Below, piece after piece: positions 2,626 through 8,149 of a DNA stretch of 20,000 nt (the stretch's first letter is position 1; every line of letters starts with the position of its first letter). The notes below the pieces were generated by a model. The model did no database searches. It was not told the origin of the DNA and worked only from the letters and a program-made list of their open reading frames with translations. A program made the position numbers and the translations under genes. The stretch lies in IMG/VR virus record IMGVR_UViG_2706794685_000007. The stretch is one strand, 5' to 3'. Origin of the DNA: an uncultured virus (IMG/VR IMGVR_UViG_2706794685_000007) (Duplodnaviria; Heunggongvirae; Uroviricota; Caudoviricetes).

Positions 2626-2643
2626 TAGGTAAACACTTACTTA
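2626..2643. promoter_or_regulatory. operator-like motif A (TARRTA-N6-TAYYTA), copy 1
   Basis: TAGGTA aacact TACTTA, overlapping the rnhA stop codon; four more copies in the window. Confidence 0.65.
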
Positions 2644-3234
2644 CTGTTTGTTATAAACAAAACCAATATCTTTCTTGTGAGGCATATCTGCTGCTGAAAA
2701 AGCTGCGATCTTCGCGAGTCGATCACATATTTCATTTTCACGATGCCCGGCGTGACCTTTAACCCACTTCCAGCGAACATTATGTCGACTTGCGGCCTCA
2801 TCCAGACGCTTCCACAGATCAACATTCTTTACCGGTTTTTTGTCAGAAGTCATCCATCCATTGCGTTTCCACCATTTCATCCACTGTGTCATGCCGTTTT
2901 TCAGATACTGGCTATCAGAGTGCAAAATAACGTTGCATGGATATTTCAAACGCTCCAGCCCGATAAGTGCCCCCATCATCTCCATGCGGTTATTGGTGGT
3001 GCTATGAAAACCATCTGAGAACTCGCGTTCCTCGCCACGATACTGGAGAACGATACCGTAACCGCCCGGGCCACCCGGATTTTTAAGGCAAGAGCCATCA
3101 CTAAAGATTTTCACGGTTTTAAGCTGGGGATTGAACTCTACGACAGGCGTTGTGGGATTGGTGCGGGGAGAATTTTTGTTTTTGTCTTTTTTGCGAGTTT
3201 TTGCTTGCGGTCGGGCTGGTGTCTTCGTTGTCAT
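2641..3234 (-). CDS. rnhA: ribonuclease HI with basic N-terminal extension
   Basis: RNase HI motifs FSDGS..NPG, TTNNRME, SDSQY, WVKGHAG..NE.CD.LA with all catalytic acidic residues present. Start at ATG 3234 after AGGAG (the ORF track start at 3318 runs into the structured non-coding element). Confidence 0.95.
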
Positions 3235-3321
3235 ATAAACTCCTGAATCAAGCGCCGCGCCGATTTTTCCTCGCGCGTGCGCACACGCGTGCGTGTTAAT
3301 AATTATTAAAATAAACAAATT

Positions 3322-3763
3322 ACTTCCCAGAACAGGTTTTTATAAACCTGAACTGAACGAACGAAGTGAGTGAAGTTCACCTCGAACGAAGTGAGAGGTT
3401 GTCTTTTCAGGTAATACTCTCCCAGGGAGGTGAGTATAAAATTCCTCACCAACCTGGTCGTTTCATAACCTGAAAAGCTATGGTCTAAGTCTACTGCCAG
3501 CTTAGACTTGGGAAGTTATGGATGACAGCACCCCAGAACCGAGATCTTCCCACACTTTATGAAGGGGAGTACTGGATTCAACCTCTCGAAACACCCCAGA
3601 CTCGACAATCATAAAGTGACCCTTGTCTCCGCTCACTTTGGTTCCCCCTTCCCCGACACCTAAACGGCACCGGTTCTACGCTGGTAGTGAGCTTTTTTAA
3701 ACCTGACGCCAGTGACGCTTACCCCCACCCATCAGGTCGAGTCTCCAGTCTACGACTGGAAAC
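3322..3763 (-). ncRNA. putative large structured non-coding element (RNA and/or ssDNA) upstream of rnhA
   Basis: No ORF of 60 aa or more. At least ten helices read by eye: 3322-3329/3509-3516, 3333-3350, 3350-3378, 3379-3399, 3403-3412/3468-3477, 3483-3489/3501-3507, 3553-3562/3609-3618, 3598-3606/3736-3744, 3631-3637/3686-3692, 3744-3760. Predicted promoter immediately upstream. Confidence 0.65.
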
Positions 3764-3769
3764 TATCAG

Positions 3770-3798
3770 ATCTTAGCACTTACAATTCATCTTATGAA
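3770..3798 (-). promoter_or_regulatory. predicted sigma70 promoter for the structured element and rnhA
   Basis: Minus strand TTCATA (3798-3793), 17 nt spacer ending in TGC, then TAAGAT (3775-3770), i.e. an extended -10. The predicted TSS near 3763 falls just before the first hairpin. Confidence 0.55.
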
Positions 3799-3815
3799 TA
3801 GTTTGTACTTATCTA

Positions 3816-4046
3816 TCATTTCGATTGATTATTTTCTCGACCATGTAGTTGAACATTCAAGGCAAACACCTCGTTGATCAACTCACCTAAAAGCTGTTCA
3901 ACAAGTTCGCGATGCTCCCCAAGATGCAAGCACTTAATTGCCCACTCGTACAAGTTGAAAGCCTGCTCACGATCTTTCATCATTTCACGAGCCTGGGCCA
4001 GAAAATCGCTGTCTACGAGCGCAACGACATTAGTCGGGTATGACAT
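3816..4046 (-). CDS. hypothetical small helical protein
   Basis: ORF track 3816..4070; a better start is ATG 4046 (MSYPTNVV) after AAGGAAACCAAC. Confidence 0.7.
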   Translation of the reverse strand: MSYPTNVVALVDSDFLAQAREMMKDREQAFNLYEWAIKCLHLGEHRELVEQLLGELINEVFALNVQLHGRENNQSK

Positions 4047-4152
4047 GTTGGTTTCCTTAAAGTGGTTCATAAAATCGATTTTAAAGCGTCTGGGAAGGGG
4101 GGTCTAGTGGATTCTGTAGTGATGTTCAGGTCTGGAGTCTCTGATACAAAAC

Positions 4153-7028: not shown

Positions 7029-7673
7029 CTAATGAACGGTCACTCGACCACAGAACCGGTTTTCTATCTTTTCTACAGCGTTATCTAGCATTCTCATCAC
7101 TGATCTGGCTCTTGCTTCAACCGTGCGATATCGGTTGGAAACGACGAAGGTTTGCAGATCCCCCCTTTGCGGATGCAGGTGAATTTTTGTCAGTTCCCCG
7201 CACATCAACGCATCAATACGAGCGACATACAGACGGTCTAATGATGCTCGTTGTGATCGCAAGTAATCTCGCTCTGAGAGAGCGACTCCCGGGCGTAGGC
7301 CAGCAATGGCGTTAAAGTTTGAAATAGCAGTTTTGTGGCAAAACTTTTCGATATCGAGGGCTAACTCAATACATCGATCTTCATTGGTATGGCCGACCAA
7401 ATCCAACGTGTAGGCCATAACATCAGCAGGTGTGCGATCGATAACAAAGCCTTCAACACCACGCGTAAGTAGCTCTATATGCTTTGCGATTTCCATTTGA
7501 ATCTGAAGCCGCTCATATAGAGGCATAGACTCACCTACTCGAACACCGAGTCGGCTCATCAAACTTCCGACACCAGCATCCACGTAAGGGATTCCGTAAT
7601 GTTTGTCGATATATTTTGCCAGGGTTGTTTTCCCACTGCCCTGAGCACCAGTGATCCCAATCCGGTAATCCAT
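7029..7673 (-). CDS. P-loop NTPase, probable nucleotide (dNMP) kinase / AAA_28-like
   Basis: N-terminal Walker A GAQGSGKTT and IDRTPAD motif; translationally coupled to DHFR (TAATG). Confidence 0.8.
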   Translation of the reverse strand: MDYRIGITGAQGSGKTTLAKYIDKHYGIPYVDAGVGSLMSRLGVRVGESMPLYERLQIQMEIAKHIELLTRGVEGFVIDRTPADVMAYTLDLVGHTNEDRCIELALDIEKFCHKTAISNFNAIAGLRPGVALSERDYLRSQRASLDRLYVARIDALMCGELTKIHLHPQRGDLQTFVVSNRYRTVEARARSVMRMLDNAVEKIENRFCGRVTVH

Positions 7674-8149
7674 TACGACCTTCTGTATACGATCTGCGAA
7701 AAGCCAGGCTCTTCCTCGCTGGCTCGTTGGGTAAAAACTGTTTCAACAGGCACAAAGCCTAAATTACGCATCATGCTTGCCGGGAAGAATGCATCGGCGT
7801 TTGGCACATCAACGCCGATGTGGGAGAGCCAAATCTCTTCAACATGCGGCATGAATAGCGAGTAAATTTGTTCCCCGCCAATCACCCACACAGGCTCTGG
7901 TAATCGCAACACATCATCCACACCAGCAGGGTAGAATCCATTTGGTACAAAGCCATGAGAGCGCGTCAAAACGAGGTTATGACGCTCTGGAAGAGGGCGT
8001 TTGAGACTTTCCATCGTTTTACGCCCCATAACGACAGTGGCGTTTTTGGTGAGTCTCTTAAATAGCTTCAGATCGGTAGAACAACGCCAGGGCAGTTCGT
8101 TCGCTATGCCGATCTCATAGTTACGGCCAACAGCAGCTATCATCTTCAT
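7673..8149 (-). CDS. dihydrofolate reductase (phage-type)
   Basis: IAAV..NYEIG..NELPW..DL..FK, VVMGRKTMES, RPLPER.N.VL, VIGGEQIY, ADAFFP. Confidence 0.95.
   Translation of the reverse strand: MKMIAAVGRNYEIGIANELPWRCSTDLKLFKRLTKNATVVMGRKTMESLKRPLPERHNLVLTRSHGFVPNGFYPAGVDDVLRLPEPVWVIGGEQIYSLFMPHVEEIWLSHIGVDVPNADAFFPASMMRNLGFVPVETVFTQRASEEEPGFSQIVYRRS

Follow-up and report, generated by a model that had tools for sequence, protein, structure and literature searches.

Twin hairpins with tandem G.A pairs in the 3' part of a conserved minus-sense RNA gene of SSU5-type phage-plasmids, and a wider set of hairpins with the same core

Introduction

Positions 3350-3399 of a 20,000-nucleotide stretch of DNA from an uncultured virus of the Caudoviricetes (IMG/VR record IMGVR_UViG_2706794685_000007; "the window" below is the whole of this stretch) hold two adjacent hairpins built around tandem G.A pairs, and they raise the question of which strand does the work, and in what form. 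The window is part of an SSU5/pHCM2-type phage-plasmid, its positions 3200-3900 being 100% identical to the E. coli O104:H4 plasmid p09EL50. The original prediction, made from the letters alone, was that the hairpins act as single-stranded DNA (ssDNA) of the plus strand, either as the transcription template or as a reverse transcript, in the manner of the single-strand initiation (ssi) signals at which primosomes assemble. Here we describe the hairpins, the RNA gene in which they lie and the unrelated genomes in which the same core recurs, and we weigh what these say about their role. Sequence comparison supports the view that the hairpins are a genuine structural module with constraint on the strand that carries the G.A pairs (the GA strand); the claim that plus-strand ssDNA is the working molecule here was not supported, the plus strand being the template of a minus-sense RNA gene that is expressed in lysogens.

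Results and discussion

Two adjacent hairpins share a core, and the two strands fold differently

The two hairpins and the core that they share were found exactly as they had been described, together with a competing hairpin on the other strand and a T-rich run:

3350..3378, plus strand: hairpin 1, with a 5-bp outer stem (GAACT/AGTTC), two tandem G.A tiers, two 2-bp AC/GT steps and a C-GAA-G triloop
3379..3399, plus strand: hairpin 2, with a 5-bp stem (ACCTC/GAGGT), one tandem G.A tier, an AC/GT step and a C-GAA-G triloop
3358..3395, plus strand: direct repeat of the 13-nt core CGAACGAAGTGAG, with copies at 3358-3370 and 3383-3395 and a period of 25 nt
3358..3388, minus strand (RNA sense): alternative hairpin between the two units, of 8 bp including one G.U, with a 7-nt loop and 2 outer pairs
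3400..3408, plus strand: T-rich run TTGTCTTTT directly 3' of hairpin 2, which also serves as 5' arm in a long helix formed with 3468-3477

The exact core CGAACGAAGTGAG matched twice in the window, compared to a mean of 0.00 in 200 shuffled versions, none of which held even one copy (0/200). A near-identical record (G001) also has two exact copies, both at the hairpin locus, and there as in the window copies lie on the plus strand only; allowing two mismatches gave 3 matches in G001 versus 2 for a reversed control pattern. Both hairpins have the C-GNA-G triloop of mini-hairpin DNA, in the form C-GAA-G, and the pair below the loop-closing C-G is A-T in both (it is G-C in 59 members of the wider class described below).

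When the plus-strand 50-mer was folded with RNA parameters, the minimum fold was exactly the twin hairpins (-14.2 kcal/mol, z -3.0, a value which 3 of 200 shuffles reach). A DNA parameter set did not recover the twin hairpins from the same 50-mer (z -0.42), probably because neither tandem G.A pairs nor GNA loops are covered by its terms. The minus strand reads UC/UC at the G.A positions, as the original prediction had pointed out, and there the twin fold yields only -6.6 kcal/mol, compared to -13.0 kcal/mol for the rival hairpin between the two units; on the plus strand the G.U position of that inter-unit helix becomes an A.C mismatch.

The hairpins lie within a conserved minus-sense RNA gene

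The hairpins are part of a block (~3316-3747) that is nearly invariant between SSU5, pHCM2 and their Klebsiella, Enterobacter, Salmonella and Cronobacter relatives, while both of its flanks diverge. Its features, in addition to the hairpins, are:

3316..3747, minus strand: conserved structured RNA gene of ~430-450 nt, unannotated, G-rich on the RNA strand
3333..3350, strand unassigned: A+T-rich hairpin P0 (CAGGTTT/AAACCTG), with a compensatory T-A to G-C change and a mixed strand signal
3320..3332, minus strand: invariant box UUCUGGGAAGUAA on the RNA, for which ACUUC segments within the hairpin block, or CUUCCCA at 3509-3515, are possible pairing partners
3300..3319, minus strand: sequence-variable tract just past the conserved block, A-rich on the plus strand and U-rich on the RNA, a likely terminator tail

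The block was present at 67 of the 79 viral loci that could be anchored on the RNase H protein. The 12 loci without it comprised one with no upstream DNA (L110), nine whose RNase H is at most 49% identical, and two viral contigs (L143 and L144) with a different gene context, whose RNase HI is 89% identical over residues 25-185, with no match to the N-terminal extension and no RNA element upstream. Neither a homologous element nor a comparable gap was seen around distant RNase H genes, apart from an unrelated gap of ~360 nt in L159. No Rfam family matched the window at gathering score (0 matches); within 3150-3950 the best E-value was 0.054, for an unrelated viral family.

A consensus fold of 21 representatives reached -141.1 kcal/mol with 128 pairs on the minus strand, compared to -114.4 kcal/mol with 113 pairs on the plus strand, and the covariation score was 0.083 with 31 extra pair types on the minus strand versus 0.062 with 19 on the plus, all of these figures being limited by the kinship of the sequences, which fall into roughly four deep lineages. 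Helices common to both strands have G.U as their intermediate state when read on the minus strand and A.C when read on the plus; pair 60:117, for instance, is UA8/CG7/UG5 on the minus strand and UA8/CG7/other5 on the plus. Because the substitutions are of the G.U type on the minus strand, the block is a structured RNA of minus sense. The P0 pair 407:416 is UA15/GC5 (minus-strand pair count). Past the block a U-rich RNA tail of variable sequence occurs in most lineages, and A predominates at 10 of the 11 positions from 3309 to 3319 (plus strand, family alignment). Two copies of CTTCCCA can each pair with a single TGGGAAG (3323-3329, 3509-3515 and 3546-3552, all three of them invariant), and therefore the 3' box of the RNA and an internal arm compete for one partner.

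The hairpin block is the most conserved 50 nt of this RNA element, with 1 informative site in 50 versus 62 in 342 for the rest (Fisher p 0.0016, 56 unique sequences). Hairpin 2 is invariant in all 56, and the sole variable site of hairpin 1 is 3357 A>G, which turns an A-T pair into G.T, affects a base that is unpaired on the minus strand in the inter-unit hairpin model, and is also found in one E. coli-type plasmid. Of the 82 sequences compared, 59 match the window exactly, 3357 A>G is present in 16, one base of the T-run is missing from 4, and 3 are incomplete; a 71-nt query against 685 plasmid records gave identities of at least 99% in 359, 95-99% in 325 and 80-90% in 1. Cronobacter pFS2 (L450) has an insertion of exactly one 25-nt unit, aligned to window 3355-3380, giving three cores and not two, which shows that unit number changes by slippage within the family. 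The hairpin block being otherwise invariant, the family cannot tell which strand folds.

The RNA block is expressed in lysogens

In phage Cyrano, carried by E. coli LF82, an ORF (open reading frame) of 135 nt has been called inside the block on the same strand (CYRAN_81, window ~3504-3638). Table 1 of PMC9928086 places CYRAN_81 12-fold above the local background of the prophage in an LB-grown LF82 lysogen, and that list of genes at 5-fold or more has neither CYRAN_82 (rnhA) nor CYRAN_80. By this table the RNA block is transcribed on its own in lysogens, and the same entries suggest that expression drops between the block and rnhA. Three RNA-library runs also hold the region as contigs, one of which is 1092 nt long and corresponds to window 3010-4101; one RNA run consulted as raw reads gave 0 reads on the region.

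The same core recurs in unrelated Bacteria, Archaea and other phages

Outside the SSU5 family the module takes the general form C-GA-RC-GNA-GY-GA-G, and the same core, set in lineage-specific stems that covary, was found at 140 or more unrelated loci in Bacteria, Archaea and other phages. Scanning metagenomes for a pair of cores separated by 13 nt yielded 71 loci, 47 with SSU5 markers and 24 without, and as one of the latter (L177) is an SSU5-type fragment, 23 are non-SSU5. A genome scan (one genome per prokaryote species, 6-30-nt gap) yielded at least 120 loci, those listed being from Halobacteria, Woesearchaeota, Altarchaeum, the candidate phyla radiation (CPR), Actinomycetota, Bacteroidota, Acidobacteriota, Clostridia, Planctomycetota, Chlamydiota and others, and a viral scan yielded at least 12 non-SSU5 loci. 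As every locus was selected on two exact cores, the neighbouring units are the only unbiased ones.

Pairing of the core flanks at positions 2-5 was 0.80, 0.45, 0.46 and 0.45, compared to 0.32, 0.26, 0.25 and 0.25 with shuffled partners (248 unique instances from 128 loci), and 27 distinct 4-bp stems were counted among class members. Among 124 neighbouring units with 1-3 substitutions relative to the core, changes were few at G1 (9), A2 (10), G10 (4), A11 (7), A7 (3), C4 (8) and G8 (13), and many at A3 (37, mostly to G), T9 (35, mostly to C), G5 (26, mostly to A), A6 (27, to any base), C0 (38) and G12 (22). Class-wide, the core pair 3:9 is A-T in 433 instances, G-C in 59, G.T in 10 and A.C in 6, and the loop is GAA in 411, AAA in 50, GCA in 19, GGA in 10 and GTA in 8. 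This pattern of substitution indicates that the tandem G.A tiers and the A of the loop resist change while the Watson-Crick positions covary and the middle base of the loop is free. It had been proposed that the G.A pairs would be kept in homologues while the surrounding pairs covary, and this holds across the unrelated genomes, with their 27 stems and 124 variant units, and not within the SSU5 family itself, in which nothing varies.

With respect to the flanking genes (65 loci with clear ORFs on both sides) the GA strand is sense at 31 loci, antisense at 15, convergent at 12 and divergent at 7. Stems with a single non-Watson-Crick pair had G.T 14 times and A.C 17 times, which like the 10 G.T and 6 A.C of core pair 3:9 is no bias and allows no strand call. 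No recurrent family was found among 420 small ORFs beside the repeats, nor any RAYT-like gene in their vicinity, and an Rfam scan of 20 non-SSU5 loci returned only a tmRNA, in L166. Genes for tRNA were found at 16 of the 120 genome loci (among the matches listed), which on a rough estimate exceeds chance. Within the genome contigs (L232-L351), GA-core arrays frequently abut tRNA genes (for example in L344, L237, L249 and L320), and in several of these arrays the hairpin stem is tRNA acceptor-stem sequence or a duplicated tRNA 3' fragment. No publication carrying the core strings was found within the open-access literature.

Among other phages, four T4-like contigs (L446-L449, with gp23, UvsY, UvsW, gp55-like and gp47/46-like genes) have a hairpin 1 that is nearly that of SSU5, together with a hairpin 2 in which the stem differs yet is complementary (CATC/GATG). 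As in SSU5, the twin module lies ~100 nt upstream of a minus-strand gene, and it is accompanied by a second, inverted twin module on the opposite strand, across 135 A+T-rich bp (L446 5996-6222). In L446 the inverted pair sits within a 900-bp gap that runs from the uvsW-side gene to the gp55-like gene, and the layout looks like that of an origin or of a miniature inverted-repeat transposable element (MITE). When the profile of the whole SSU5 element was compared with these contigs, the hairpin block was the sole match. In L412, a third phage context, the stem is GTCCAC/GTGGAC.

The replicon and the genes around the hairpins

The hairpins sit in a 580-bp gap between rnhA and a small ORF:

2641..3237, minus strand: rnhA (RNase HI), the next gene downstream of the RNA block
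3816..4070, minus strand: small conserved ORF upstream of the RNA block, annotated as 231 nt

All 20 of the window ORFs covered by a Pfam scan are on the minus strand, and they form a T4-like DNA-metabolism block (SbcCD-like, NrdAB, ThyA, DHFR, exonuclease, Dam and RNase HI proteins); the DHFR gene at 7673-8149 is annotated in RefSeq as trimethoprim-resistant DfrA51. The phage-plasmid as a whole encodes DnaE, a DnaB-like helicase, ligase, RecA, FEN, RNase HI and SbcCD-like proteins, and the gene for a RepB-family initiator lies ~16.7 kb to the right of the hairpins (60566-61780 in the record, which is 109274 nt long and converts as window = record - 40504). As for a reverse transcript as the source of ssDNA, neither the Pfam scan of the 20 window ORFs nor the product names of record 37704-50404 and 50000-99999 (~62 of 109 kb) include a reverse transcriptase. 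A search of the replicon for base-pairing targets of the hairpins gave none beyond chance, and a tRNA scan of the window gave none. Window 3200-3900 matches 232 of 5426 complete E. coli genomes, nearly always on plasmids. With these genomes and 685-687 PLSDB records, the phage-plasmid family is common in clinical Enterobacteriaceae.

Two further structures border the RNA block. At its upstream edge (3746-3760) is a hairpin whose sequence differs per lineage with its complementarity kept, which may be either the 5' hairpin of the RNA or the end of the transcript of the preceding ORF, and just upstream of it on the minus strand we read a promoter-like site, TTCATA-17-TAAGAT. Between the RNA gene and the rnhA ribosome-binding site (3270-3297) is a GC tract of alternating purines and pyrimidines, which could form a G+C hairpin on the RNA strand.

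Comparison with known hairpin systems

One system that invites comparison is the ssi region of ColE1/pMB1, which like the SSU5 locus has the same core type (GA tier, 2-bp step, GNA loop) in a GA-rich stretch, and in which the core likewise adjoins an RNA gene, that of the ~550-nt primer RNA. In the ColE1 record GAGCGTAGCGAG is on the plus strand at 1332-1343 and RNA I is on the minus strand at 645-749 (Rfam), which puts the motif on the RNA II-sense strand, opposite to the SSU5 arrangement and in agreement with the orientation that the original prediction had given. If the origin is placed by the length of RNA II, which we take to be 555 nt, the GA core lies ~135 nt beyond it. Use of the ColE1 primer RNA depends on RNase H. 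ColE1 has one unit whereas the SSU5 family has two to three. The GA strand of ColE1 has the sense of RNA II, is displaced, and carries the core past the end of the RNA; that of SSU5 is the antisense or template strand, with the core inside the 3' part of the RNA gene. The SSU5 locus therefore has the GA-rich hairpin core of a ColE1-type primosome site and not its placement on the displaced strand downstream of an RNA-DNA switch, and for a fork coming from the RepB origin, with the direction of replication assumed, the plus strand would be the leading-strand template. This failure of geometry lowers the case for a ColE1-like primosome assembly site (pas), not the case that GA hairpins can act as ssDNA.

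Mini-hairpins with GNA or GNNA loops are described at the G4 origin, at RSF1010 ssiA (CCGAAGG) and at the N4 promoter (GCGGAGC), and the GNA type is far less stable as RNA than as DNA (PMC13037366). The mini-hairpin DNA GCGNAGC / GCGNNAGC of Hirao and co-workers has the same C-GNA-G triloop with sheared G.A as the SSU5 units (PMC13037366), which differ from the GCGNAGC class in having A-T and not G-C below the loop-closing pair, and in the tandem G.A tiers that flank the loop, none being reported for the mini-hairpin examples of PMC13037366. RSF1010 ssiA and ssiB, used by the RepB' primase, resemble the SSU5 hairpins as hairpin ssDNA signals with a GNA mini-hairpin (PMC13037366). Unlike RSF1010, the SSU5 replicon has its module on one strand only and no RepB'-type primase turned up in it, none having been sought; the annotated "RepB family" protein of SSU5 is an initiator and not the RepB' primase. 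In RSF1010, ssiA and ssiB lie paired on opposite strands, a layout that the inverted twin modules of the T4-like contigs resemble.

Repetitive extragenic palindromes (REP) and the bacterial interspersed mosaic elements (BIME) that they build are, like the GA-core class, short imperfect palindromes in intergenic tandem arrays of both orientations and variable copy number. Unlike them, the GA-core class has a conserved hairpin tip with non-Watson-Crick G.A tiers that spans the domains of life, and the SSU5 replicon has a single locus without dispersed copies, while other genomes do carry arrays. PeSL elements are terminator-promoter cassettes between early genes of T4-type phages. As with PeSL, the hairpins of SSU5 and of the T4-like contigs come just upstream of the promoter of the next gene, ~100-115 nt before a minus-strand gene; unlike PeSL, they have no canonical G+C stem with a U-run, and their core is spread far beyond the T4-type phages.

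Weighing the explanations

We tentatively favour, with confidence somewhat short of even, the explanation that the twin hairpins are two (in Cronobacter, three) GA-core repeat units within the 3' or terminator domain of the lysogen-expressed minus-sense RNA, frozen by constraints on both strands. By this account two tandem 25-nt units would have been built into the last ~90 nt of an RNA gene of ~430-450 nt, and the units, P0, the invariant box and the U-rich tail would together form the 3'-terminal or terminator domain that separates the RNA from rnhA. On the RNA strand the neighbouring units would pair with one another into the 8-bp hairpin with its G.U, on the plus strand each unit is predicted to fold into the GA hairpin that defines the class, and the use of both strands would have kept the 50 nt from changing. 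Both this dual constraint and the role as terminator or insulator are our interpretation of an arrangement in which a strongly conserved module falls at the end of a transcribed gene, and several observations weigh against them. The U-tract is absent in the Klebsiella lineage; the proposed terminator stem is branched, and a simple terminator scan calls nothing at the locus; the helices of the hairpin block on the RNA strand, the inter-unit hairpin among them, never vary and so have no support from covariation. At 3334 and 3357, A>G substitutions in one and the same clade leave G.T pairs when the plus strand is read and C.A when the minus strand is. The RNA-library contigs (3010-4101 or more) carry no strand or end information, and no read fixes the 3' end or the strand of the RNA. 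T-runs after the class hairpins are not enriched either (14 of 133, compared to 9-14 in controls), so a role in termination does not extend to the class as a whole.

A working role for the plus strand as DNA, of the kind originally predicted, seems unlikely to us as the explanation of this locus, where it is unproven and geometrically awkward. The hairpins would in that case be an ssi or primosome-assembly signal, or an entry site for primase or helicase, in lytic replication, possibly coupled to an R-loop of the G-rich RNA that is trimmed by RNase HI. The greater stability of GNA mini-hairpins as DNA and their occurrence at ssDNA initiation sites (PMC13037366) are consistent with this, as are the same core type ~135 nt past the ColE1 origin, the element's own replication proteins (DnaE, DnaB-like helicase, ligase, RecA, FEN, RNase HI and SbcCD-like), and the origin-like inverted module by uvsW/uvsY in the T4-like contigs; the constraint on the GA strand across the class, with no fixed gene orientation, also fits a structure at the DNA level. 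Against it, the geometry is opposite to that of ColE1, since the GA strand is the template of the RNA and probably that of the leading strand as well, the replicon has the module at one locus in one orientation, and no hairpin-specific primase turned up, although none was searched for. Wider in reach and somewhat more doubtful again is the proposal that GA-core hairpins are a domain-spanning, undescribed and REP-like class of strand-specific ssDNA modules, in which paired units would be ssDNA entry signals of phages, the SSU5 twin module with its G-rich RNA and RNase HI would be an R-loop-type lytic origin, and the inverted modules of the T4-like contigs would be its bidirectional version.

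If the plus strand were itself transcribed, the GA hairpins could be part of a ~90-nt antisense RNA running from ~3320 to hairpin 2 and the UUGUCUUUU that follows it, or a bidirectional terminator that stops antisense transcription. The plus-strand 50-mer does fold into the twin hairpins as RNA, at the energy given above, and a T-rich run follows; by our reading the A+T-rich stretch before the block offers -10-like hexamers in most lineages, the 3334 and 3357 substitutions leave G.U pairs on the plus strand, and across the class sense placement of the GA strand is twice as common as antisense. We nevertheless hold this to be improbable, given that no promoter is conserved (on the plus strand the promoter scan has no entry before 3757), that the RNA and all 20 scanned window ORFs read from the minus strand, that the RNA-library contigs are not strand-resolved, and that the T-run doubles as the arm of a conserved helix. 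The arrays with a period of 25-50 nt, the change of exactly one unit in Cronobacter, the inverted terminal copies in the T4-like phage and the tRNA genes near 16 of the 120 genome loci (again among the matches listed) would all suit a selfish REP- or MITE-like hairpin repeat that landed in the phage-plasmid, or expanded there by slippage, without a function for it. Such a repeat would hardly be expected to be the most conserved part of its surroundings (56 unique sequences, 685 plasmids) while the flanks diverge, it has no further copies in the replicon, and the loci examined have no recurrent nuclease or transposase ORF beside the repeats, and so we give this explanation little credence. It is just as improbable, in our judgement, that a regulatory or replication protein binds the two 13-mers as direct repeats in double-stranded DNA: invariance at every base of an exact direct repeat is typical of protein contacts, but a spacing of 25 bp is off helical phase, and a lineage-specific DNA-binding protein does not explain why core and hairpin geometry recur in Archaea and many bacterial phyla.

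What the hairpins may mean

For the 50 nt at 3350-3399 the two strands predict different structures, and as the GA strand is not the strand of the RNA, the locus offers a clean test bed for DNA versus RNA. What is new, as far as comparison of the sequences allows, is that the same core occurs outside the SSU5 family with lineage-specific covarying stems and varies least at the G.A positions and the loop A. A 13-nt core with non-Watson-Crick G.A tiers that is common to phages, Bacteria and Archaea while its stems are free would, if true, mean either a physical optimum that has been reached repeatedly or a universal process that reads it. For the phage-plasmids themselves, the explanation that we favour, that the units close the 3' domain of the minus-sense RNA, would mean, if true, that the hairpins mark the end of a conserved, unannotated RNA gene that is expressed in lysogens of a common phage-plasmid family.

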